From Candidatus Nomurabacteria bacterium (GTDB lineage: Bacteria > Patescibacteriota > Minisyncoccia > Phycocordibacterales > UBA9973): a DNA stretch of 64,000 bases. The notes below the pieces were generated by a model. It made no database searches. It had not been told where the DNA came from and was given only the letters and a program-made list of their open reading frames with translations. The translations under genes and the position numbers were made by a program. Below, one piece after another: positions 2,394-48,321 of the stretch; the first letter of the stretch is position 1; the number at the start of each line of letters is the position of its first letter. Location of the stretch: the NCBI GenBank assembly GCA_026396065.1, contig JAPLXO010000003.1, forward strand, positions 1,304 through 65,303, written 5' to 3'.

Positions 2394-3525
2394 AAATCTG
2401 ATTATCAATTTTGAAGTTCTCTAAAATTGCTTTTGCTACTGCATTTGATAAAAATGTTGGAACAGCATTTCCAATTTGTAAATTTCTATCACCCCTAGAA
2501 CCAAAAAATTGATAATCATCGGGGAAGCACTGAATTCTTGCACCCTCTCTTGTCGTTAGTGGTCTTGGTGCTTTTGGATGAATACAACGAGATGATGACG
2601 GGGTGCTAAGATTTCTCGTTATTGTTGTCGCTGGTCGTTTCCACCAAAGACGACAATATGTATTTTTAAAACCTGAGGTTGGGCGTAATTCCTCTGGCAA
2701 ATCTTCTGGCGTTCCACCATCTGGCAATAACTCCATTATTTTTACCAAATTTTCATTATTGTTTGGCGAATTATGATCCATTAGTTTTGTCGGTGCGTTT
2801 TTACGCATAAACTTTTGAAAATCATTTTGTGGTTTAGAAGAATACTCAAAACTTTCTTCGTTTGATTTGATAAAAGGCAAATCGCTTATTGCTTCCTCAA
2901 GTGTTAAATATGGTTTGAGTTTTTTGTTGAACAAATCTGGTTTTTCCTCTGGATTATAATGGGTTGGTTCTGGGTATTCAAAATCAGTTTTAAGTTTTGA
3001 GCCAATAATCACAACCCTCTCCCTTATTTGCGGTGCGCCATAATCGGCGGCATTCAAAAGTCTATATTGAACTTTATATCCTAAAGATTCAAAAAGTGAA
3101 ATAATCGTTTTTAATAATTCGCCACCTTGCATTGATAAAAGACCTTTAACATTTTCAAAAAGAAAAAGTTTTGGATTGAATTCTTTTAGAACACGATAGT
3201 ATTCTTGAAAAAGTTTGCCTCGTGGGTCATCAATCAATCTTTTTCCAACTGTTGAATACGCCTGACATGGTGGTCCTCCAACAATAATATCAATCTCATT
3301 AGGTTTTATATTTAAATCTTTTTCAATTTTTTCAGCGTTAAAATCCTTAATGTCCTCGGCATATACTTTTGCTGTTGGGTGGTTTAATGAATATGCTTTC
3401 GCCATATTTGGCAAAATTTCATTTGCTGCCACTATTTCAAAATTATCATCGTGGGCGAAACCATAGCTTAAACCACCCACGCCTGAAAATAAATCTATTA
3501 CTTTTAGTTTCTTATTTTTACTCAT
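2392..3525 (-). CDS. DNA (cytosine-5)-methyltransferase
   Basis: Motifs FSGVGGLSYGF (motif I), GGPPCQAYS (motif IV), ENV (motif VI) and QIGNAVP (motif X). Confidence 0.9.
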   Translation of the reverse strand: MSKNKKLKVIDLFSGVGGLSYGFAHDDNFEIVAANEILPNMAKAYSLNHPTAKVYAEDIKDFNAEKIEKDLNIKPNEIDIIVGGPPCQAYSTVGKRLIDDPRGKLFQEYYRVLKEFNPKLFLFENVKGLLSMQGGELLKTIISLFESLGYKVQYRLLNAADYGAPQIRERVVIIGSKLKTDFEYPEPTHYNPEEKPDLFNKKLKPYLTLEEAISDLPFIKSNEESFEYSSKPQNDFQKFMRKNAPTKLMDHNSPNNNENLVKIMELLPDGGTPEDLPEELRPTSGFKNTYCRLWWKRPATTITRNLSTPSSSRCIHPKAPRPLTTREGARIQCFPDDYQFFGSRGDRNLQIGNAVPTFLSNAVAKAILENFKIDNQI

Positions 3526-3533
3526 AAAATAAT

Positions 3534-4325
3534 CTAATCAAAATTAATTTCCTTATATTTCATCGGACTTTCTGTAATTTTCCAAATAAAATAATTTTGA
3601 TCAATGTTAAAAACTGTTTGACCTTCCATTTGTTGTCTTGTAATCCAATTTACGCTATCGTCTTCTATTTCATCTAATTTAATAAAGGCAACTTGACCAT
3701 TATATAAATCAAAATGAAGTGCCAAGGTATGATAACCCAAATCACGAAAAACTCTTTTCGCTTCTAAAACTTTGTGTTGTTTAATGTCATTGATTCCCGT
3801 AAAACCTGATTGCATTTCAATTCTAACTTTTTCTTTATCATTGAGTTTAATTTCTAAATCAGCTTTTGGTGTTCTCTTAAAAGTTTCAATATTTTTTAAG
3901 TCGTCGTCGCCAATCAAATCTATACTTGAAGTATCAACTTCAAAAACCAAGCCAAGTGCTTTCAAAAAATAATTTGATAAAACATAACCTCTCATCCAAG
4001 AGTAATAAACTTGCTCTGGTCGTCTGCCTTGATTATTTAAAACTGGCAAAATATTGTTCGCTTTCATAATTTCAAAAGTTCTTTCAATATGTTCTTTTTT
4101 GAAAGCAACAATATCGTCAAGTTTTATTTCTTTGGCGACGACATCATTTATTTTATCAATTATGTTATAAAGTCTTTTGTTTAATAACTCAATGTAATTC
4201 AAATCAACCGTCGGGGTAATGTCTTTTGCCCCAAAAAAGTTTTTGACATCTGCTTGGTTTGAAAAACCAAGTTTTTGTCTGTATTGACGAAAATATTCAG
4301 CTGTAATTGTAATTTGTCTAGGCAT
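3534..4325 (-). CDS. putative type II restriction endonuclease (partner of the adjacent m5C MTase)
   Basis: 263-aa ORF lying between the C gene and the MTase in the same orientation with 4-8 bp spacers. The call rests on operon context only. Confidence 0.5.
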   Translation of the reverse strand: MPRQITITAEYFRQYRQKLGFSNQADVKNFFGAKDITPTVDLNYIELLNKRLYNIIDKINDVVAKEIKLDDIVAFKKEHIERTFEIMKANNILPVLNNQGRRPEQVYYSWMRGYVLSNYFLKALGLVFEVDTSSIDLIGDDDLKNIETFKRTPKADLEIKLNDKEKVRIEMQSGFTGINDIKQHKVLEAKRVFRDLGYHTLALHFDLYNGQVAFIKLDEIEDDSVNWITRQQMEGQTVFNIDQNYFIWKITESPMKYKEINFD

Positions 4326-39726: not shown

Positions 39727-42700
39727 ATGGAAGAAAAAAAAGATACAACTAAATCAGAAATAGCACTTCGCGAAGAAGCGGTTTTGGCTTTTTGGCGAGA
39801 AAATAAAACATTTGAAAAATCTTTAGAAAAAGAATCTCCAAAAGGAAATTATGTTTTTTATGATGGTCCACCATTTGCGACAGGGCAGATGCACTACGGG
39901 CATATTTTAGGTTCGACTGCGAAAGATGTCATCGGTCGCTATCAAACTATGCGCGGATACCATGTTCCACGAAAATGGGGCTGGGATTGTCATGGTTTGC
40001 CTATTGAAAACATTGTAGAAAAAGAACTCGGAATAGCAGGACATAAAGAAATTGAAAAATATGGAATAGAAAAGTTTATTGAGTATGCACGAAGTAAAGT
40101 TTTGCAATATGAAGATGATTGGGAATCTGGTGTAGAGCGTATCGGTCGCTGGGTGGATTTTCGTGGTGGCTACAAGACGATGGATAATAATTTTATCGAA
40201 TCAGTGTGGTGGGCGCTTTCAGAATTTTATAAAAAAGGTTTAGTTTATGAAGGTGTGCGCGTACTGGCGTATTGCGCCCGCTGTGAGACACCAATAGCGA
40301 ATTCCGAAATCGCGATGGATAACAGTTATAAAGATATTTCTGATCTTTCAGTATATGTGAAATTTGAATTAGTAGACGAACCAAATACATATTTACTCGC
40401 GTGGACTACTACACCTTGGACTTTGCCAGGGAATACTGCTATCGCGATAAATAAAGATATTGATTATGTAAAAGTAAGACTTACAGAGGATGCTCAAATC
40501 CAAAAAGCTGGAACAGGTACTTATAATGTTTATACTCCTGAATTTTTAATTTTAGCTAAAGTTCTTGTTGAGAAAGTTTTAAAGGATAAAATATTTGAAG
40601 TTGTTGAAGAATATAAAGGTGAAAAATTAGTCGGAAAATCATACAAACCAATTTTTAAATATTATGAAAATGTTGAAATGCCAAATAAAGAAAATATTTG
40701 GAAAGTTTGGCATGCAGATTTCGTAACGACAGAAAAGGGAACAGGTATCGCACACCAAGCCCCAGCTTTCGGAGAAGAAGACTTCGTCTTGGCAAAAGAA
40801 AATAACGTACCATTTATTATTCACGTGAATAATACTGGCAAATTCGTAGATCAAGTTTCTGATATGGCAGGGCTAGCAGTAAAACCAAAAGACACAGCTG
40901 AAGACAAAGACGCGCACATGCGCACAGACATAGAAGTCATCAGAAAACTCCAAGAAAACGGAGCATTTTTTGCGAAAGAAAAAATACTGCACTCATACCC
41001 GCACTGTATGCGTTGTGATACTCCTATTATTTATTATGCTTTGCCATCTTGGTTTATCAATATCACGAAAGTAAAATCAGATATTGCAAAAAGTGCCGAA
41101 GAAATGAATTGGATTCCAGCGCACCTAAAAGATGGAAGATTTAAAAATATTTTAGAATCTGCCCCTGATTGGAATATCTCTCGCAATCGTTATTGGGCTT
41201 CGCCTCTTCCTGTTTGGAAATGCACGAAGTGTAAAGAAATGAAATTTATTTCTTCACTTGAAGATTTGAAAAAGCATACAAAAAAATCTGGAAATAAATA
41301 TTTTGTAATGCGTCATGGTGAGACAGAGGCAAATAAAAAAGGAATAATCTGTTCTATGCCTTCTGGTAAGTGGCATTTGGATGAAGATGGAATAAGGCAA
41401 GTCGAAAATGCAGGTGAGAATATGAAAGATAAGAAAATCGACTTGATATTTGTATCTGATTTTACTCGTACACAAGAAACAGCTGAAATAATGAGGTTAA
41501 AACTCGGCTTGGAAAAAGAGAGTGTAATAGTAGAGAAAAGGCTTCGTGAAATAGGCGCGTATTCTTTTGATGGAAAAGTTTGGGATGAATATCACGCATT
41601 TCATACAAAGACAGTAGAGAATTTCAACAAGCGCGTGAATGATGATGAATCGTACGAAGATGTGAAAGTTCGTATGACAGCATTCCTATATGAAATAGAA
41701 GAAAAATATAAAGGTAAAAATATTTTATTTGTCACTCACGGTGGGCCAGCTTGGCTTTTGACGGCAGGATCTATGGGTAATGATGTAAAAGAAACCTTGG
41801 CAATGATTTTAGATGTTAAGGATTATCATTATTTCCAAAATGCGGAAATAAAAGAATTGGATTTTACTCCTATCTCACACAATGCAAAATTTGAACTTGA
41901 TTTTCATCGACCATATATCGACAATATAAATCTCATTTGTGAGTGTGGTGAAGAAATGAAAAGAATCCCAGAAGTGCTGGATTGCTGGTTTGAATCTGGT
42001 TCTATGCCTTTCGCTCAAGATCATTTTCCTTTTGACCCCGAAGGAAAGATTACTTCCTACGGGGCAGGAAATTCAGACTGGGAAAAGAACAACTTTCCTG
42101 CAGGATTCGTGGCTGAATATATCGCTCAGACTAGAACATGGTTCAACTACACTCTCACAGTTTCTTCTGTTTTATTTGGTCATGCACCTTTTAAAAATGT
42201 CGTGACGACTGGAACTGTGCGCGCAGAAGATGGAGAAAAAATGTCTAAATCGAAAAATAATTTCCCTAATCCAAAGACTTTATTTGATAAGTATGGTGTG
42301 GATGCACTTCGTATGTATTTGATGTCTGGTCCACTAATGAAAGGGGAAGATGCGAATTTCGTAGAAAAACTCGTACAAGAAATATCTAGTAAAATAGTCG
42401 GCCGACTTGAAAACGTTGTTGCCTTTTATGAATTGTATAAAGACACCTCACCCCAACCCTCTCCTTATAAAGGAGAGGGAGCTAAAAACGTGCTTGATGT
42501 ATGGATTCTTTCTCGACTTGCACAAGTGATGGAAGAAGTGACTCTTGGTATGGAAGCTTATGATATGGCTTCGGCTACAAAACCTTTTGATTTATTTATC
42601 GATGACCTTTCTACTTGGTATCTCCGTCGTTCCCGTGACAGAATGAAAGAAGAGGCAAGCAACCCCGAAGGAAAGAGTACTTCCTACGGGGCAAGAACGA

Positions 42701-43347
42701 CTTTGTATTTTGTACTCAAAAATTTGGCAAAAGTCATAGCTCCGTTTGCGCCATTCGTGTCAGAAAACATTTGGATGAAATTGCGACTTGAGAATGAAGT
42801 TGAAAGTGTACATTTAGTAAACTGGCCCGACCTCACCCTGCCCTCTCCTGGAGAGGAGAGGGTTCTAGAAGAGATGCAGAAAACGAGAAACATTGTTTCT
42901 GTGGGATTAAAAGAGAGGCAAAAATTAGGAATTCCTGTGCGTCAGGTTTTGGGTGGTGTGAAAGTTAGTATTGAAAAATTAGATAATGAATATTTAGATT
43001 TAATAAAAGAAGAGTTGAACGTCAAAGAAGTGACACTAGAAACTAGCAACTCGAACCTAGAAACTAGTGTCGTACTCGACACGGTCATTACTCCCGAACT
43101 AAAAGAAGAAGGGAACTACCGTGAACTCGTTCGCGCGATTCAAGACATGCGTAAAAAAGCAGGGCTCACTCCTTCAGATATAATTTCTCTTTCTATAGAA
43201 ACTGACGAGATAGGAAAATCTTTAATTCAAAAATTCGAAGCTGATTTCAAGAAAACTATTTTGGTGAAAGAAATAAAGTTTGAGAGTAATACTGGGGAAG
43301 AAGTAAAAGTGGATACTTTAATCTTTAAAGTTAGTATTGAAAAATAA
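39727..43347 (+). CDS. ileS: isoleucyl-tRNA synthetase carrying an embedded histidine-phosphatase domain and several in-frame palindromic mini-insertions
   Basis: HIGH (PFATGQMHYGHIL), editing domain, KMSKS (GEKMSKSKNN), zinc-knuckle halves CTKC ... CECG. 1206 aa, versus roughly 920-1050 aa for typical IleS. Confidence 0.95.
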   Translation: MEEKKDTTKSEIALREEAVLAFWRENKTFEKSLEKESPKGNYVFYDGPPFATGQMHYGHILGSTAKDVIGRYQTMRGYHVPRKWGWDCHGLPIENIVEKELGIAGHKEIEKYGIEKFIEYARSKVLQYEDDWESGVERIGRWVDFRGGYKTMDNNFIESVWWALSEFYKKGLVYEGVRVLAYCARCETPIANSEIAMDNSYKDISDLSVYVKFELVDEPNTYLLAWTTTPWTLPGNTAIAINKDIDYVKVRLTEDAQIQKAGTGTYNVYTPEFLILAKVLVEKVLKDKIFEVVEEYKGEKLVGKSYKPIFKYYENVEMPNKENIWKVWHADFVTTEKGTGIAHQAPAFGEEDFVLAKENNVPFIIHVNNTGKFVDQVSDMAGLAVKPKDTAEDKDAHMRTDIEVIRKLQENGAFFAKEKILHSYPHCMRCDTPIIYYALPSWFINITKVKSDIAKSAEEMNWIPAHLKDGRFKNILESAPDWNISRNRYWASPLPVWKCTKCKEMKFISSLEDLKKHTKKSGNKYFVMRHGETEANKKGIICSMPSGKWHLDEDGIRQVENAGENMKDKKIDLIFVSDFTRTQETAEIMRLKLGLEKESVIVEKRLREIGAYSFDGKVWDEYHAFHTKTVENFNKRVNDDESYEDVKVRMTAFLYEIEEKYKGKNILFVTHGGPAWLLTAGSMGNDVKETLAMILDVKDYHYFQNAEIKELDFTPISHNAKFELDFHRPYIDNINLICECGEEMKRIPEVLDCWFESGSMPFAQDHFPFDPEGKITSYGAGNSDWEKNNFPAGFVAEYIAQTRTWFNYTLTVSSVLFGHAPFKNVVTTGTVRAEDGEKMSKSKNNFPNPKTLFDKYGVDALRMYLMSGPLMKGEDANFVEKLVQEISSKIVGRLENVVAFYELYKDTSPQPSPYKGEGAKNVLDVWILSRLAQVMEEVTLGMEAYDMASATKPFDLFIDDLSTWYLRRSRDRMKEEASNPEGKSTSYGARTTLYFVLKNLAKVIAPFAPFVSENIWMKLRLENEVESVHLVNWPDLTLPSPGEERVLEEMQKTRNIVSVGLKERQKLGIPVRQVLGGVKVSIEKLDNEYLDLIKEELNVKEVTLETSNSNLETSVVLDTVITPELKEEGNYRELVRAIQDMRKKAGLTPSDIISLSIETDEIGKSLIQKFEADFKKTILVKEIKFESNTGEEVKVDTLIFKVSIEK
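41240..41900 (+). other. in-frame histidine phosphatase (PGAM-like) domain inserted between the two zinc-knuckle halves of IleS
   Basis: YFVMRHGETEANKKG (RHG catalytic His motif) ... ILFVTHGGPAWLL (second conserved His motif). ~220 aa between PVWKCTKCKE and ICECGEEM. Confidence 0.7.
42036..42064. repeat. 29-bp palindromic insert CCCCGAAGGAAAGATTACTTCCTACGGGG, in-frame in ileS
   Basis: Encodes PEGKITSYG. A second copy at 42663-42691 differs by one nt. Confidence 0.8.
42444..42479. repeat. GC-rich palindromic mini-element, in-frame in ileS
   Basis: CACCTCACCCCAACCCTCTCCTTataAAGGAGAGGG with a 10-bp perfect stem. Encodes TSPQPSPYKGEG. Confidence 0.85.
42663..42691. repeat. second copy of the 29-bp palindromic insert, in-frame in ileS
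   Basis: CCCCGAAGGAAAGAGTACTTCCTACGGGG. Encodes PEGKSTSYG. Confidence 0.8.
42831..42862. repeat. variant GC-rich palindromic mini-element, in-frame in ileS
   Basis: CCTCACCCTGCCCTCTCCTggagAGGAGAGGG. Encodes LTLPSPGEER. Confidence 0.7.
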
Positions 43348-43366
43348 GGGTATTTACTCATTTTGC

Positions 43367-43395
43367 TTGACTTTTTCGTGCATTGGTGCTATACT
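43367..43395 (+). promoter_or_regulatory. near-consensus sigma70-type promoter upstream of the DGR target gene
   Basis: TTGACT - 17 bp - TATACT. Confidence 0.5.
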
Positions 43396-43530
43396 TTCAG
43401 TTGGTAAAGTTCGTTGAAAAATGCTTGTTTTTGGGCTTGTTGCTCGGTTTTAGGAATCTTTATTTTATTTGGATTCTTGAAACTGGGCAATAATGCTTGG
43501 GCTAAAAAAACAATCTAAAACAAAAACAAA

Positions 43531-44112
43531 ATGAAAAAATTTAAACTTGTATTGGTAATTGTTGCAATAGTTGCTTCAATTATCGCGAATGTTGTGTATG
43601 TACCTGAAGTTCGCATCCTTTGCTTTATTTTCGAATACTTCGCACTCGGTTTTTTACTTCTGCAAATTATCGCAGAGGAAAGTGGAATTGAAGTTATGAA
43701 ATTACCTGATTCTGAAACAGGCGAAACGATTTCAAAAGACTTCTTGAACTCGGGTTATTACTACGAGGGCATAGATGGCTTTTGGAAAAGTTTAGCAAAA
43801 CTTCTTCCCATTTTTCCTAAGGAAATTCTTCTTCAACAAATCAACGAAGGAGTAAAAACTGAAGAACAAATGATGGATGGCAGGAATTGGTTGTCGAGAA
43901 AGGAAGCTATGAGTTTCGGAGCACAAAATGTTAAAAGCGGTGAGTACAAAGACGGAAAGGTACGTATTTACTTCTTTAAAGACGAAGAAAACAAAGGTCA
44001 GCGCTCTGAGCTCTGCGTTTGTTTGGATGGTGACAGTCCGGACGTGGACGTGGGCAAGTTCAATCCAGAGAACCGGTGGCGCAATGGCCGCATCTCGTAT
44101 TCTCGCAAATAG
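43531..44112 (+). CDS. DGR target protein: small membrane-anchored protein with a C-terminal variable region
   Basis: N-terminal TM helices. The last ~37 codons (43996-44107) form the VR paired with the TR at 44458-44569. Confidence 0.7.
   Translation: MKKFKLVLVIVAIVASIIANVVYVPEVRILCFIFEYFALGFLLLQIIAEESGIEVMKLPDSETGETISKDFLNSGYYYEGIDGFWKSLAKLLPIFPKEILLQQINEGVKTEEQMMDGRNWLSRKEAMSFGAQNVKSGEYKDGKVRIYFFKDEENKGQRSELCVCLDGDSPDVDVGKFNPENRWRNGRISYSRK
43996..44107 (+). repeat. DGR variable repeat (VR)
   Basis: 112-bp alignment with the TR. About 20 mismatches, every one at a position where the TR has A (the VR has G or C). Confidence 0.85.
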
Positions 44113-44132
44113 ATATTTGCGAAACTTATCTT

Positions 44133-44175
44133 AAAGGGCTCTTTGATTCTTTTGAATCTGGGGCCCTTTAATTTT
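44133..44175 (+). terminator. GC hairpin plus T-run just downstream of the VR (terminator and/or homing-associated hairpin)
   Basis: AAAGGGC-23 nt-GCCCTTT followed by a T run. Confidence 0.45.
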
Positions 44176-44457
44176 TTTTTATTTTTTAAAATGTTAGAAT
44201 ATATACAGAACAGTGCGGTAATTTTCGGCAGTGTCCAATATTCTAATTAGAATACAAGCTTCTTGAAATACATTGTTTCGATTTTAATACGGTCAGAATT
44301 GTGTCGGCGAATTTTTATTTTCTTACACAAGAGCACGATATTATTTTCCATTAAAAAAATATTTATTGGTGATACTACTAGTGAGCTTCGATGCTCCAAA
44401 TAATATTCAAAAGTTTATGATTTAAACTTTGGTGGCACAGATGGTCGTATCACAGAA

Positions 44458-44569
44458 GGTCAGCGCTCTAAACTCTACGTTTATTTGAATGGTGACAATC
44501 CGAACGTGAACGTGAACAAGTTCAATCCAGAGAACAAGTGGAACAATGGCAACATCTCGTATTCTCGAA
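44458..44569 (+). repeat. DGR template repeat (TR), non-coding
   Basis: Rich in AAC/AAT codons when read in the VR frame (GQRSKLYVYLNGDNPNVNVNKFNPENKWNNGNISYSRN). No ORF covers it. Confidence 0.85.
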
Positions 44570-44640
44570 ACAAAAATTTTCTCCCCGTTTATCATTTTGG
44601 TAAATGAGGAGTTTTTAATTTACGTACATTTCTGCTATCG

Positions 44641-44985
44641 CTAGGATTTACGTAATTTTGTTTCGATTCCTTTTTTCCAACCTCCTAAAATTTTACCGAC
44701 TTCGTGAAGTTTACTTGAAAGTTCTAAATATTCTTTTTCTTTGATCAATTTGTTTTCAAAAGCAATTTGAAGTAGGTATTTTATAATGTCGTTCTTACTG
44801 ATAGCTTCGACTATCACAATGCTTTTGTTTTCCATCCCAGCATAGTATGCTTTGTAGATGAGTTCAAGTAAATCTAAAAAATGGTTTTCAATTCTGGCAC
44901 CAGTTGTATATCTGCCGATACGAGGCATATGAGGGACGATATTACTACACCAAATAGCGAAGCTCTCTTTTGTTCGCAAGATCAC
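44641..44985 (-). CDS. avd: DGR accessory variability determinant (Avd), four-helix-bundle protein
   Basis: 114 aa. C-terminal EVGKILGGW matches Bordetella phage Avd EVGRILGSW. Resembles the 23S-rRNA-IVS protein family. Confidence 0.75.
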   Translation of the reverse strand: MILRTKESFAIWCSNIVPHMPRIGRYTTGARIENHFLDLLELIYKAYYAGMENKSIVIVEAISKNDIIKYLLQIAFENKLIKEKEYLELSSKLHEVGKILGGWKKGIETKLRKS

Positions 44986-45010
44986 ACTGGCTTTCTCGAT
45001 GGAAAAAGTA

Positions 45011-45033
45011 GTGTGTGTGTGTGTGTGTGTGTG
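45011..45033. repeat. (GT)11.5 dinucleotide microsatellite at the start of the RT ORF
   Basis: GTGTGTGTGTGTGTGTGTGTGTG. Encodes VCVCVC at the RT N-terminus. Lies 26-48 nt upstream of the avd start on the other strand. Confidence 0.9.
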
Positions 45034-46046
45034 GATTCAGCCATGCCTTCAATAATATCATATTGGTAGAAAATTTGTTTGTATCGTGGCGAGAATTTTT
45101 GCGAGGTAAAAGCAAACGAAAAGATGTGATTTTGTTTGGAATGAATTTGATGGATAATATTTTTTCTCTCCACAACGACCTTAAAAATAAAAAATATAAA
45201 CACAGTAATTACGAAGCATTTAAAATAAACGACCCGAAACCGAGAGACATACACAAAGCCAGTGTGCGAGACAGACTTTTACACCATTCTATCTATCGTA
45301 CGCTGTATCCGTACTTTGATAAGAAATTCATTTACGATTCATATTCTTGCCGATTAGGAAAGGGAACACATAAAGCAATATATAGATTTGAAAGTTTTGT
45401 AAATAAAGTAAGCAAGAATAATACAAAAACCTGCTGGGTTTTGAAATGCGACATCAGAAAGTTTTTTGCAAATATTGACCATGAAATATTGAAAAACATT
45501 TTGGCGAAATACATACAAGACAAAGATACATTAAATTTGTTAAGGAATATAATAGATAGCTTTCAAAGTGACACAAACTCTGCCTATGCAGAAAGTGTGT
45601 CACTTTCTGCTATTGGTTTACCGTTAGGTAATTTAACTTCACAGCTTCTAGTAAATATTTATATGAATGAATTTGATCAGTACGTGAAGCATAAGCTCAA
45701 AGTGAAATATTATATTAGATATGCGGATGATTTTGTAGTATTGAGTGAAGATAAAAAGTATTTGGAAGAAATACTGGAAGAAGTCGCAAATTTTCTGAAA
45801 GAAAATTTGCGACTAAAGTTACATCCAAACAAAGTTTTTAGTAAAACAATATTTTCTGGTGTAGACTTTCTCGGCTGGGTGCATTTTCCAAGACATCGAG
45901 TGTTGCGAAATGCTACTAAAAAAAGAATGCTTAGAAATTTAAAGAAAAATAGTAGTGAAAATGTAAAAGCTTCATATTTAGGAATGTTGAGTCATGGGAA
46001 TGGTTTTAAATTAAAGAATCATATTTACGCCATGGCTGAGATATAA
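45015..46046 (+). CDS. DGR reverse transcriptase
   Basis: IGLPLGNLTSQ (DGR-specific IGxxxSQ motif 4), YADD (YIRYADDFVV). N-terminus ILVENLFVSWREFLRGKSKRKD aligns to Bordetella bRT. Apparent GTG start inside the GT tract. Confidence 0.9.
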   Translation: MCVCVCGFSHAFNNIILVENLFVSWREFLRGKSKRKDVILFGMNLMDNIFSLHNDLKNKKYKHSNYEAFKINDPKPRDIHKASVRDRLLHHSIYRTLYPYFDKKFIYDSYSCRLGKGTHKAIYRFESFVNKVSKNNTKTCWVLKCDIRKFFANIDHEILKNILAKYIQDKDTLNLLRNIIDSFQSDTNSAYAESVSLSAIGLPLGNLTSQLLVNIYMNEFDQYVKHKLKVKYYIRYADDFVVLSEDKKYLEEILEEVANFLKENLRLKLHPNKVFSKTIFSGVDFLGWVHFPRHRVLRNATKKRMLRNLKKNSSENVKASYLGMLSHGNGFKLKNHIYAMAEI

Positions 46047-46056
46047 AATAAATATT

Positions 46057-48321
46057 TTATTCAAAATGCAATTGTAAATGCTTCTTTGTGAGCATGTCTT
46101 TTAATTTTGGGAAATTACGGAGGTCTGGGTCAGTGGTTATTAGGTTTGTCGCTTCGAGGCGTGCGGCTTCTACCATTTTTATATTTTTAATCGCTTCCAT
46201 ACCGAGGTCGGTGATGCCCCATTGCTTTGAGCCTGCGAGTTCTCCTGCACCACGGAGCGATAGGTCGAGTTCAGAAAGCTCGAAACCATTTTTAGCCGTT
46301 TTTAATGCTTTCAATCGATGCATAGTTTTTTCTGATTTGGCTTCGGCAAAAACATAACAAAAGGCTTGATGATTACTACGTATCACGCGTCCGCGGAGCT
46401 GGTGAAGTTGTGCGAGTCCAAATCTCTCTGCACCTTCGATAATTATTATTGTAGCATTAGGCACATTCACACCGACTTCGATTACAGAAGTCGCGACGAG
46501 AATATCAATAGCCCCTAAAGTGAAACGTTCCATAACTTTCTCCTTTTTTTCTTTTGTCATCTTACTGTGGAGCACATCTATTTCACAGTCTTGGAAAACT
46601 TCTTTTTTAAGTCTTTTGGCTTCAGCGACTGCGGATTTCATGGTGAGGGCGAGTTCTTTTTCAGGATCTGGTTCGTCGATACGAGGGCAGATGACATAGA
46701 GCTGTCTACCTTTCGCCATTTCTTCTTTTATTTTTTTATAAGTATCTTCTCTTTTGTCTGGGGTAATTATTTCTGTAATAACTGGTTTTCTACCAGCTGG
46801 CATCTCATCGAGTAAACTCAAATCAAGGTCACCATAAATAGTGAGTGCGAGTGTGCGGGGGATCGGTGTCGCTGTCATTGAAAGTAGGTGTGGAGCGAAG
46901 CCATCCTTTCTAACTAAATTTCTTCTCTGTGCCGTACCGAAACGGTGTTGCTCGTCGATGATAGTAAGTGCGAGATTTTTAAATTTCACCGATTTTGAAA
47001 TGAGTGCGTGAGTGCCGATAAGTATTGGAATTTCACCATTAGCAGTCCATTTCAAAAGTTGAGCTCTGGAAATATTTGTCCATCCGTCAGGGCTGACTTT
47101 GGATGGAAATTTGCGACAGGTCTTGCCTGTAAGTAGTGCTACATTTATTGGTAAGTGTTTAAAATATTTTATAAATGATTCAAAATGCTGAGTCGCTAAA
47201 ATTTCTGTCGGTGCCATATAGGCGACTTGTAAATTACCGAATCCATCTTTCCCCTCCTGCCTGAGGAGGGGTGTTTTGGAATCAAAACGGGGTGGTGGGA
47301 GAGGAGGTCTTTGAGTAACTGTGGCATATGTTACCGTCGCAGCGACTGCTGTTTTACCAGAGCCGACGTCACCTTCGAGCAGGCGAGACATTGGGTGATC
47401 AGCTTTTATATCTGTCAGAATTGTGTTGATAGCATCGACTTGGCCTTGAGTGGCTTCAAAAGGAAAACGTTCCAAAAATTCTTGTACTTTTGTTTCATCT
47501 GGATTAACACGAAATGATTTATTATTTTTATATTCTCTTCGGTCTTGTTGTCTTTGTAATTGGATGAAAAAAACTTCTTCAAAAGCAAAACGCTTTCTAG
47601 CTGAAAGGGAATCATGTTCATTTTGCGGTGTGTGAATCCAAATGAGTGATGTTTTTAAACTAGGTAAATGATATTTATCTAAAATGTCTTTTGGTATGTA
47701 ATCAAAAAAACCATCTAGCACACTACTGTTAAATATTTTTTGTATTGTATGGTAAATCCATTTAGAAGTTATGCCTCTAGTTTCTCTGTATACAGGATAT
47801 GAAAGTCCTGTATTATTTTCTCCCCCTTTATAAGGGGGAGTGCCCAAAGGGCGAGGGGGTGAATTTTTAAATAAACTCTCATGTTTATCTATCGGTAGAT
47901 TTCCAATTTTTTCAAATTCTGGATTGGTAAGATATAAACCACTTTTACTTTCCGTCACTTTTCCTGTTAGCTTTATATTTTCACCTTCGTGAATCATTTT
48001 GGCTAGATATGCTTGGTGAAACCAAATGATTTTTATTCTCCCTGAAAGATCCTCAATATAAGCTTCACCCATTGGTATATGTGAACGAAAACCTTTTTTT
48101 GTTTTTAAATTTGTAACTTTTCCATAAACCGTCGCTGTCTCACCAGCTATCAATTCATCGATTTGTTTTATTTGAGAAATATCTGAGTAACGAACAGGAA
48201 AGTAGAATAGCAAATCGGCAACAGAAAAAAGCCCGAGCTTATGAAGGGCTTTTTTCTGGTTGATATCGAGGCGGGAAATATCCTCTAACTTATCACCTAT
48301 ATTCATAGTTTTAGTTACCAA
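46057..48321 (-). CDS. recG: ATP-dependent DNA helicase RecG, with two in-frame palindromic insertions
   Basis: Wedge/OB N-terminus. GDVGSGKT (motif I), DEQHRFG (motif II), C-terminal helicase motifs. 754 aa. Confidence 0.9.
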   Translation of the reverse strand: MVTKTMNIGDKLEDISRLDINQKKALHKLGLFSVADLLFYFPVRYSDISQIKQIDELIAGETATVYGKVTNLKTKKGFRSHIPMGEAYIEDLSGRIKIIWFHQAYLAKMIHEGENIKLTGKVTESKSGLYLTNPEFEKIGNLPIDKHESLFKNSPPRPLGTPPYKGGENNTGLSYPVYRETRGITSKWIYHTIQKIFNSSVLDGFFDYIPKDILDKYHLPSLKTSLIWIHTPQNEHDSLSARKRFAFEEVFFIQLQRQQDRREYKNNKSFRVNPDETKVQEFLERFPFEATQGQVDAINTILTDIKADHPMSRLLEGDVGSGKTAVAATVTYATVTQRPPLPPPRFDSKTPLLRQEGKDGFGNLQVAYMAPTEILATQHFESFIKYFKHLPINVALLTGKTCRKFPSKVSPDGWTNISRAQLLKWTANGEIPILIGTHALISKSVKFKNLALTIIDEQHRFGTAQRRNLVRKDGFAPHLLSMTATPIPRTLALTIYGDLDLSLLDEMPAGRKPVITEIITPDKREDTYKKIKEEMAKGRQLYVICPRIDEPDPEKELALTMKSAVAEAKRLKKEVFQDCEIDVLHSKMTKEKKEKVMERFTLGAIDILVATSVIEVGVNVPNATIIIIEGAERFGLAQLHQLRGRVIRSNHQAFCYVFAEAKSEKTMHRLKALKTAKNGFELSELDLSLRGAGELAGSKQWGITDLGMEAIKNIKMVEAARLEATNLITTDPDLRNFPKLKDMLTKKHLQLHFE
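47222..47308. repeat. GC-rich palindromic insert in recG, between helicase motifs I and Ia
   Basis: CCCCTCCtgcctgaGGAGGGG ... GGGTGGTGGGAGAGGAGG. Encodes RPPLPPPRFDSKTPLLRQEGKDGFGNL where other RecG run directly into QVA(Y)MAPTEILA. Confidence 0.75.
47810..47851. repeat. GC-rich palindromic mini-element in recG
   Basis: CTCCCCCTTtatAAGGGGGAG + GCCCaaaGGGC. Encodes GTPPYKGGENN. Confidence 0.8.

Follow-up and report, generated by a model that had tools for sequence, protein, structure and literature searches.

The diversity-generating retroelement (DGR) of Bordetella BPP-1 (mtd, avd, TR, brt) transfers sequence in an adenine-specific manner from a template repeat (TR) to a variable repeat (VR), and all of its essential RNA elements are held in a 140-nt spacer 3′ of the TR: an Avd-binding stem-loop, the primer, the cPRT stop, a thumb ring and a stem-loop that binds the reverse transcriptase (RT), bRT. 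Within the Candidate Phyla Radiation (CPR), 90% of the DGRs have architecture B3, which is TR-(avd)-RT (Wu et al., 2018; PMC5758913), and DGR clade 2 is restricted to Patescibacteria and encoded by cells (Roux et al., 2021; PMC8144416). Here we describe positions 43367–46046 of a 64-kb stretch of DNA from Candidatus Nomurabacteria (the window), which we read, with a probability of roughly 0.9, as a complete chromosomal DGR of the CPR/Patescibacteria clade with the B3 architecture (target with VR, TR, (avd), RT). The locus has the adenine-specific TR-to-VR transfer of the Bordetella element. It resembles the B3 DGRs of CPR and DPANN organisms in gene order, strands, host group and cellular, chromosomal setting, and also in its short target with the VR at the extreme C-terminus.

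An adenine-specific TR/VR pair, a DGR-type RT with Avd, a conserved architecture, RNA structure and a stem-loop are established at this locus. For the CPR host group the DGR itself is ordinary, a fresh example of the B3 kind that was already known. New at the level of the clade are a simple-sequence tract at the junction of avd and the RT gene, a covarying RNA of ~250 nt with its own −10 box 5′ of the TR, and a conserved stem-loop or terminator after the TR. The initial annotation had noted none of these three.

The repeat pair, the reverse transcriptase and Avd

The VR (43994–44108, + strand) forms the last 38 codons of the target gene and aligns without gaps to a non-coding TR (44456–44570, + strand) over 115 bp, at an offset of 462 bp. 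The repeats differ at 17 positions, and the TR base is adenine at each of them (13 A>G, 4 A>C, 0 A>T). Adenine makes up 40 of the 115 TR positions, so that 17 mismatches placed at random would all hit an A with a probability of ~1e-9. Codon positions 1 and 2 of the target frame hold 15 of the 17 differences. The last difference (44106) sits 2 nt inside the end of the homology, and could mark its boundary instead. The initial annotation had recognized this repeat from the letters alone, and its observation that the differences are confined to TR adenines, with G or C in the VR, holds for 17/17; the extent that it gave (112 bp, at 43996–44107 and 44458–44569) was slightly too short, and its count of about 20 differences too high. 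When translated in the VR frame, the TR reads EGQRSKLYVYLNGDNPNVNVNKFNPENKWNNGNISYSRN and is rich in asparagine (...LNGDNPNVNVNKFNPENKWNNGNISYSRN), in agreement with the abundance of AAC and AAT codons reported before. A distance of 445 bp separates the TR from the RT gene downstream, and the TR is without a credible open reading frame (ORF). At their 3′ ends both repeats carry a 15-nt invariant stretch, CATCTCGTATTCTCG, which is not GC-rich. A scan of the 64-kb window in which the TR adenines were treated as wildcards identified no second VR.

The RT gene (45015–46046, + strand) encodes 343 aa when read from its first GTG. RVT_1 is the sole domain found, and the sequence contains the motifs IGLPLGNLTSQ (45612–45644) and YADD (45720–45731). 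The best PDB match is 8ub7_A (328 aa, "Reverse transcriptase"; E = 4e-37), which covers residues 13–310 and aligns its IGIPIGSLTSQ to the IGLPLGNLTSQ of the window. We take the PDB set 8ub7–8ube to be Bordetella bRT-Avd-RNA complexes. The best match to a group II intron RT in PDB reached E = 4e-22, the NCBIfam model for group II RT/maturase scored 150.8 bits against a cut-off of 300, and Rfam gave no group II match in 43300–46100. The two motifs and the bRT-like N-terminus named in the initial annotation were therefore confirmed, the alignment to bRT starting at residue 13, and so was the assignment of the RT to the DGR type over group II.

Between the TR and the RT gene, on the opposite strand, lies avd (44641–44985, − strand; 114 aa from a GTG). 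The product matches Pfam bAvd (PF22296) with 56.8 bits at a cut-off of 40, over model positions 6–106 of 107, and its earlier identification as Avd thus stands. NCBI starts the protein at an internal methionine, which gives 95 aa (P0036); the extent of the bAvd alignment favors the 114-aa form. PF22296 is present in all 109 Avd homologues. In several relatives the conserved N-terminus of Avd is without any canonical start codon.

When one genome of each GTDB species was scanned, 361 relatives of the RT came to light, of which the best 80 loci were compared; these are 59–77% identical, and almost all belong to Patescibacteria. Essentially all of the ~60 loci with enough flanking sequence have a target with a C-terminal VR (+ strand), a TR (+) 420–520 bp downstream, avd (−) and the RT gene (+). 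Given this match to B3, the antisense avd of the window is typical and not odd. The DGR is flanked by ileS and recG of Candidatus Nomurabacteria, which places the element in a chromosome; among the relatives, synteny of the cassette with ileS and recG is not conserved. One related locus (L010) has two targets (946–1527 and 3479–4123) whose VRs match a single TR, with 24 and 11 differences, respectively, at adenines only.

Near-identical relatives that differ almost only at TR adenines of the VR indicate that the clade is active. An alignment of L060 and L064 over 4.66 kb shows 99.5% identity and 21 substitutions, of which 17 lie in a VR of 134 bp, 16 of these at TR adenines. In a population of ten contigs from different samples that have one Avd in common (P0084), the TRs are identical and two VR alleles occur, which differ from the TR exclusively at adenines (15/15 and 16/16). 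A further population (P0063) likewise has two VR alleles on one TR, with 12/12 and 16/18 of the differences at TR adenines. Every test that was run upheld the core of the earlier reading, that of a complete DGR in which an adenine-specific TR/VR pair, Avd and an RT of the DGR type accompany a small target that has N-terminal transmembrane (TM) segments.

The target protein and the orientation of its variable domain

The target gene (43531–44112, + strand) encodes 193 aa, identical to NCBI protein NTZ44_00615 from a metagenome-assembled genome of Candidatus Nomurabacteria. The near-consensus promoter that had been described upstream of it was found at 43367–43395 (+ strand; TTGACT-17-TATACT, with TG before the −10); it is the best site in the region with 10/12 matches, and constitutes a consensus match only. 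Two hydrophobic helices at residues ~6–24 (nt 43546–43602) and ~29–47 (nt 43615–43671) precede a variable domain of ~135 aa (nt 43705–44109). This fits the description of a short target with N-terminal TM helices and a variable C-terminus, the VR being its last 38 codons.

No match to the target was obtained in Pfam, NCBIfam, PHROGs, PADLOC or PDB sequences, with either the single sequence or a profile. Among 5.8 billion proteins it has one close homologue (P0002, 63% identical); an exhaustive HMM search added ~20 distant homologues of 120–215 aa, and a profile search a few more. A scan of viral contigs with the alignment of the target family gave no confirmed relative. The family has the pattern YY.EF...LP..LPVP...TEKEMT.G..FF.KEEAFGLA.K...IWF.D...L..V.V....V.V..F....W..G.VSFFRN in common. 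The family HMM covers the whole target in the window and in L014, whereas in other CPR DGR targets (L006, L023, L019, L050, and L007) its match is confined to ~55 residues at the C-terminus, which indicates that the VR-bearing strands are a common module carried on varied N-terminal scaffolds. AlphaFold modeling with an alignment of two sequences was unusable (pLDDT 52); when rerun with 17 sequences, it returned a confident model with a pLDDT of 95.6. Foldseek found no significant match of this model in PDB or BFVD, and a C-type-lectin (CLec)-like fold, as in the DGR variable proteins Mtd, TvpA and AvpA, is only a lead.

Most members of the target family adjoin neither an RT nor a TR. The sole other DGR-linked member is the target of L014 (3702–4238). 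This gene is apparently frameshifted near the end of its VR, as it runs 61 nt beyond the repeat and loses the ending ...W..G..SFFRN encoded by the TR. No TR or RT was present within 6–10 kb of the homologues P0002, P0022, P0024, and P0027. P0002 and P0022 are located on phage-like contigs among early and replication genes (primase, RNA ligase, SNF2 helicase and a T7 Gp5.9-like gene). P0024 (L085–L087), a family member free of a DGR, is part of an island that also carries Bro-N, AbiEii and Fic genes and a duplicated TGT fragment, a context that suggests phage defence or conflict, and P0027 is located in a CPR chromosome. The differences between P0002 (L001, 6727–7203) and the peptide encoded by the TR of the window lie mainly at Asn codons (N>Y, G, R, R, Y, G, G, L), a pattern that resembles diversification by a DGR; within the 17 kb of its contig that were examined, with the other 14 kb outside that stretch, there was no TR, RT or avd.

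The target was initially taken to be part of a surface-display system, in which the variable domain would lie outside the cell as a receptor or adhesin. The positive-inside rule is well established, and its application to the target family leads to a different orientation. The target of the window begins with MKKFK (charge +3), followed by the two hydrophobic helices, and an even number of TM helices after such an N-terminus would bring the C-terminus back into the cytoplasm. In L014, P0005, P0012, and P0020 a single helix precedes a +3/+4 cluster (RKK, KNKKTK, RKKK or RRQK), for which an N-out/C-in layout is predicted. The variable domain would accordingly be cytoplasmic in 5/6 anchored family members; the lone homologue with a signal-peptide-like N-terminus is P0010. 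An N-terminal hydrophobic segment or signal peptide is lacking altogether in 8/16 family members of one retrieved set and in 8/8 of another.

Surface display draws support from the two N-terminal helices of the target, from the N-terminus of P0010, and from the way of life of CPR cells, which are attached to hosts. It also agrees with surveys in which most DGR targets are associated with interactions of the cell-cell, cell-particle and virus-cell kinds (PMC8144416). Both TM layouts, on the other hand, predict a cytoplasmic variable domain, most family members are without a TM segment, and the phage-like contigs place the domain beside a T7 Gp5.9-like gene and other early and replication genes, not tail genes. 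We therefore regard display at the surface as doubtful, and favor a target that is tethered to the membrane by its two N-terminal helices, with a small alpha/beta variable domain that most likely faces the cytoplasm.

RNA elements around the repeats and the tract between avd and the RT gene

The ~330-bp spacer between the target gene and the TR contains a terminator and a −10 box, followed by a domain of ~250 nt with eight helices that reaches the first base of the TR. The intrinsic terminator of the target gene (44131–44180, + strand) consists of a 12+5-bp stem (44131–44171) and T9, and is visible in relatives. Just before it, a hairpin with an 8-bp stem and a 4-nt loop (TCGCAAAT-AGAT-ATTTGCGA; 44103–44122, + strand) spans the 3′ boundary of the VR and the stop codon, without a counterpart at the end of the TR. 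Hairpin and terminator together (44098–44182) have a minimum free energy of −31.6 kcal/mol (z = −7.3). The AAAGGGC/GCCCTTT hairpin with a T-run 3′ of the VR that the initial annotation had pointed out is thus real, but it belongs to the terminator of the target gene and is not obviously a recognition element of the DGR. Hairpins like that at 44103–44122 occur at 15/62 related VR ends (24%) against a background of 11%, and as a conserved recognition element this hairpin is a weak candidate.

An extended −10 box, TGtTAGAAT (44192–44200, + strand), opens the TR-RNA unit at a conserved aligned position: a TAnnnT box is found at the −10 position in 50/51 related loci, with TGn in 29. The structured RNA domain directly 5′ of the TR (44207–44455, + strand) is defined by covariation across 60 loci. 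In the window its helices include 44222–28/44262–68, 44289–93/44335–39, 44299–307/44322–30, 44369–75/44446–52, 44383–86/44393–96 and 44410–17/44423–30, and folding of the window sequence by itself recovers them. In the alignment of these loci (A5, 40 pairs), 93.7% of the cells are paired, against 66.5% in shuffled alignments and 43–52% when the pairing is slid. Double changes were counted in 743 cells, versus 208 in the shuffles, and compensatory changes affect 37/40 pairs. Frequent G-U pairs assign the domain to the + strand. Rfam 15 returned no match at E ≤ 1 over 43300–46100. The domain is not mentioned in the DGR surveys that were consulted (Paul et al., 2017, is outside that literature), and the survey of RNA elements by Handa et al. 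took in only 40 nt upstream of the TR (10.1101/2023.10.23.563531). The covariation is consistent with a scaffold 5′ of the TR that binds the RT in B3 DGRs, and a role of the domain in RT binding or priming may be considered.

A second element, the TR-proximal stem-loop (44581–44616, + strand; stem 44581–44611), has a CUCC...GGAG base, is followed by U5, and is also situated at the 3′ end of the convergent avd. A stem-loop 10–14 nt after the TR with an invariant GUUUU is present in all 48 aligned loci, with compensatory changes in 6/7 consensus pairs. Putative Avd-binding stem-loops just 3′ of the TR were described in 207/278 Avd-containing DGRs, CPR included (Handa et al.; 10.1101/2023.10.23.563531), and the stem-loop of the window is probably their counterpart. 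It looks at the same time like a terminator that serves the convergent avd as well.

Within the 5′ domain, UUGUUUCGA (44273–44281) is perfectly complementary to UCGAAACAA (44565–44573) at the 3′ end of the TR, and the adjacent AAUACGG pairs with CUCGUAUU. The pairing of the domain with the TR end is also found in the close relatives L006 and L014. As a primer or stop duplex of the whole clade it was rejected, as cognate pairs were no better than non-cognate pairs (p = 0.23).

On this basis, we propose that transcription from the −10 box would yield an RNA of ~410 nt with the folded 5′ domain of ~250 nt, the 115-nt TR and the stem-loop with its U-run; the boundaries of this transcript are predictions from the elements described above. 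A complex of RT and Avd would bind the RNA and copy the TR into cDNA, with misincorporation opposite template adenines. The cDNA would then replace the VR, recoding up to ~20 codons within the last 38 residues of the 193-aa target.

The divergent starts of avd (44985) and the RT gene are separated by ~30 bp that consist nearly entirely of a simple-sequence tract, (GT)11.5 (45011–45033), which holds the only in-frame starts of the RT (GTG) and is the single simple sequence repeat (SSR) of its class in the window. A junction tract is present in 72/75 loci including the window, as G7–12 in 66, (GA)6–9 in five and (GT)n in the window, and related DNA amounting to 701 kb contains 76 such tracts, 70 of them at the avd/RT junction. 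It is the slipperiness of the tract that is conserved, not its sequence. The length of the tract also varies between sequences that are identical in other respects. L060 and L064 differ by a single indel, (GA)6 versus (GA)7 in the tract, and the ten contigs of P0084 have G9 in six, G10 in three and G11 in one, with one VR allele spanning all three lengths; two more populations are polymorphic for G7/G10 and G7/G8. Homopolymer miscalls would not account for a 3-nt difference or for that of a dinucleotide. For the window itself, a search of metagenome contigs gave 0 exact matches to the flanks of (GT)n, and look-ups of its Avd and of two RT start variants returned no record. Adjacent to the tract, a near-palindromic hairpin (44983–45010) translates into nearly identical peptides from its two strands, LAFSIEKAS from that of avd and LAFSIEKAR from that of the RT, and is found as well in L091–L100, L003, and L005.

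In 50 of 72 loci an in-frame ATG for the RT follows 10–30 nt downstream of the tract, often with a −10-like TAnnnT directly after the tract, which suggests that the tract occupies a promoter-spacer or 5′-UTR position. In the subclade of the window, the RT has to start within the tract or upstream of it. When alleles of the window were simulated, they fell into three classes, which the three P0084 alleles also represent: the upstream ATG of the RT in frame, that of avd in frame, or neither; GTG starts are available in the window at any number of (GT) repeats. An avd start at an ATG beyond the tract was rejected as a general rule, since this ATG is in frame in 24/71 loci, the number expected by chance. 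A role of tract length as a regulatory switch is plausible, if tentative. A fuller model, also on the doubtful side, would have the tract act as a stochastic switch of hypermutation, its length, which would change at high frequency, setting the usable start or the promoter spacing of avd or the RT gene, in combination with an RNA that is permuted relative to that of Bordetella, the part holding the RT being 5′ and not 3′ of the TR. If such a switch exists, diversification of the target would at any moment be confined to a fraction of the cells. No literature linking DGRs to poly-G tracts, homopolymers or phase variation was found (Paul et al., 2017, was outside the search).

Next to the DGR, the isoleucyl-tRNA synthetase IleRS (39727–43347; 1206 aa) carries a complete His_Phos_1 domain, inserted at residues 526–695 inside its catalytic domain.

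State of this copy, significance and comparison with known systems

Several observations weigh against a complete DGR as set out above. There is no A>T among the 17 changes, all of which are A>G or A>C, and a GC-rich initiation of mutagenic homing (IMH) sequence is absent from the ends of the TR and VR. The hairpin at the end of the VR shows no clear conservation across the clade. With the NCBIfam model DivGenRetAVD, Avd scores 63.7 bits, under the cut-off of 80. The RT is without an ATG start, its in-frame starts being GTG codons within the repeat tract only, and the topology of the target is argued from the positive-inside rule. Finally, one independent contig over the VR (L090, from Logan) is identical to the window, with no heterogeneity of the VR seen.

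Some of these observations would be explained by a fossil, a cassette that once diversified its target and is now inactive with a frozen VR. L090 is the sole independent assembly of the VR and has the sequence of the window, the RT relies on GTG codons of a slippery tract, the observed repeat allele puts neither the upstream ATG of the RT nor that of avd in frame, and a DGR is missing from the vicinity of most target homologues. Against a fossil, the ORFs of RT, avd and target are intact, with the catalytic YADD and the IGxxxSQ motif present, the TR retains its 40 A and its AAC-rich design, the window keeps every RNA element conserved in the clade intact, and close relatives are demonstrably active. 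We consider decay of this copy unlikely, and its activity today probable. That the locus is no DGR, and that its RT is instead one of a group II intron, a retron or a defence system, beside a duplicate altered by A>G mutation of an ordinary or deaminase-driven kind, is effectively refuted: group II RT/maturase is the top-scoring NCBIfam model for the RT and A>G makes up 13/17 changes, but the score of 150.8 is half of the cut-off of 300, the PDB match to bRT is better by 15 orders of magnitude, Rfam shows no group II intron or retron RNA, Avd is present, four changes are A>C, and the identical TR/VR design recurs in ~60 loci.

For the DGR reading that we prefer, the value of the element lies in three features of the clade, the junction tract, the 5′ RNA and the target domain. 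If the tract gates expression, the DGR would be a phase-variable mutator, a case of which we found no report, and this would account for the way in which very small genomes keep down the cost of a mutagenic RT. The covarying 5′ RNA with the short 3′ stem-loop suggests that, in the largest natural reservoir of DGRs, the scaffold enveloping the RT differs from that in Bordetella. The target is a small, confidently modeled domain, probably cytoplasmic and membrane-tethered, that also occurs on phage-like contigs; a domain of this kind points to intracellular conflict and not to surface recognition.

Contingency loci with SSRs (poly-G, poly-C or dinucleotide tracts) are known from Neisseria, Haemophilus, and Campylobacter, where they lie in the promoters or in the 5′ coding parts of genes. 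The junction tract of the clade resembles these in being a G7–12 or dinucleotide tract at a fixed place between divergent starts and in its length polymorphism. It differs in that in-frame upstream ATGs occur at the level of chance (24/71) and that the window has GTG starts at any repeat number. Relative to the B3 DGRs of CPR and DPANN, the N-terminal scaffold of the target of the window is nearly unique, with P0002 and about 30 distant homologues in all, and its junction tract is (GT)n and not the poly-G of its B3 relatives. The published accounts of B3 DGRs that were consulted mention neither the junction tract nor the 5′ RNA domain.

Compared with the Bordetella DGR, the window has avd in antisense orientation between the TR and the RT gene, a structured domain of ~250 nt 5′ of the TR, and ~45 nt of RNA after the TR before the U-run, where Bordetella needs its 140-nt spacer; it is without the GC-rich IMH, and its target is not a phage tail fibre. 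In common with the BPP-1 element, it has a four-helix Avd, a stem-loop directly 3′ of the TR, and an RT that aligns to bRT over residues 13–310, with IG(x)PxGxLTSQ and YxDD in both.

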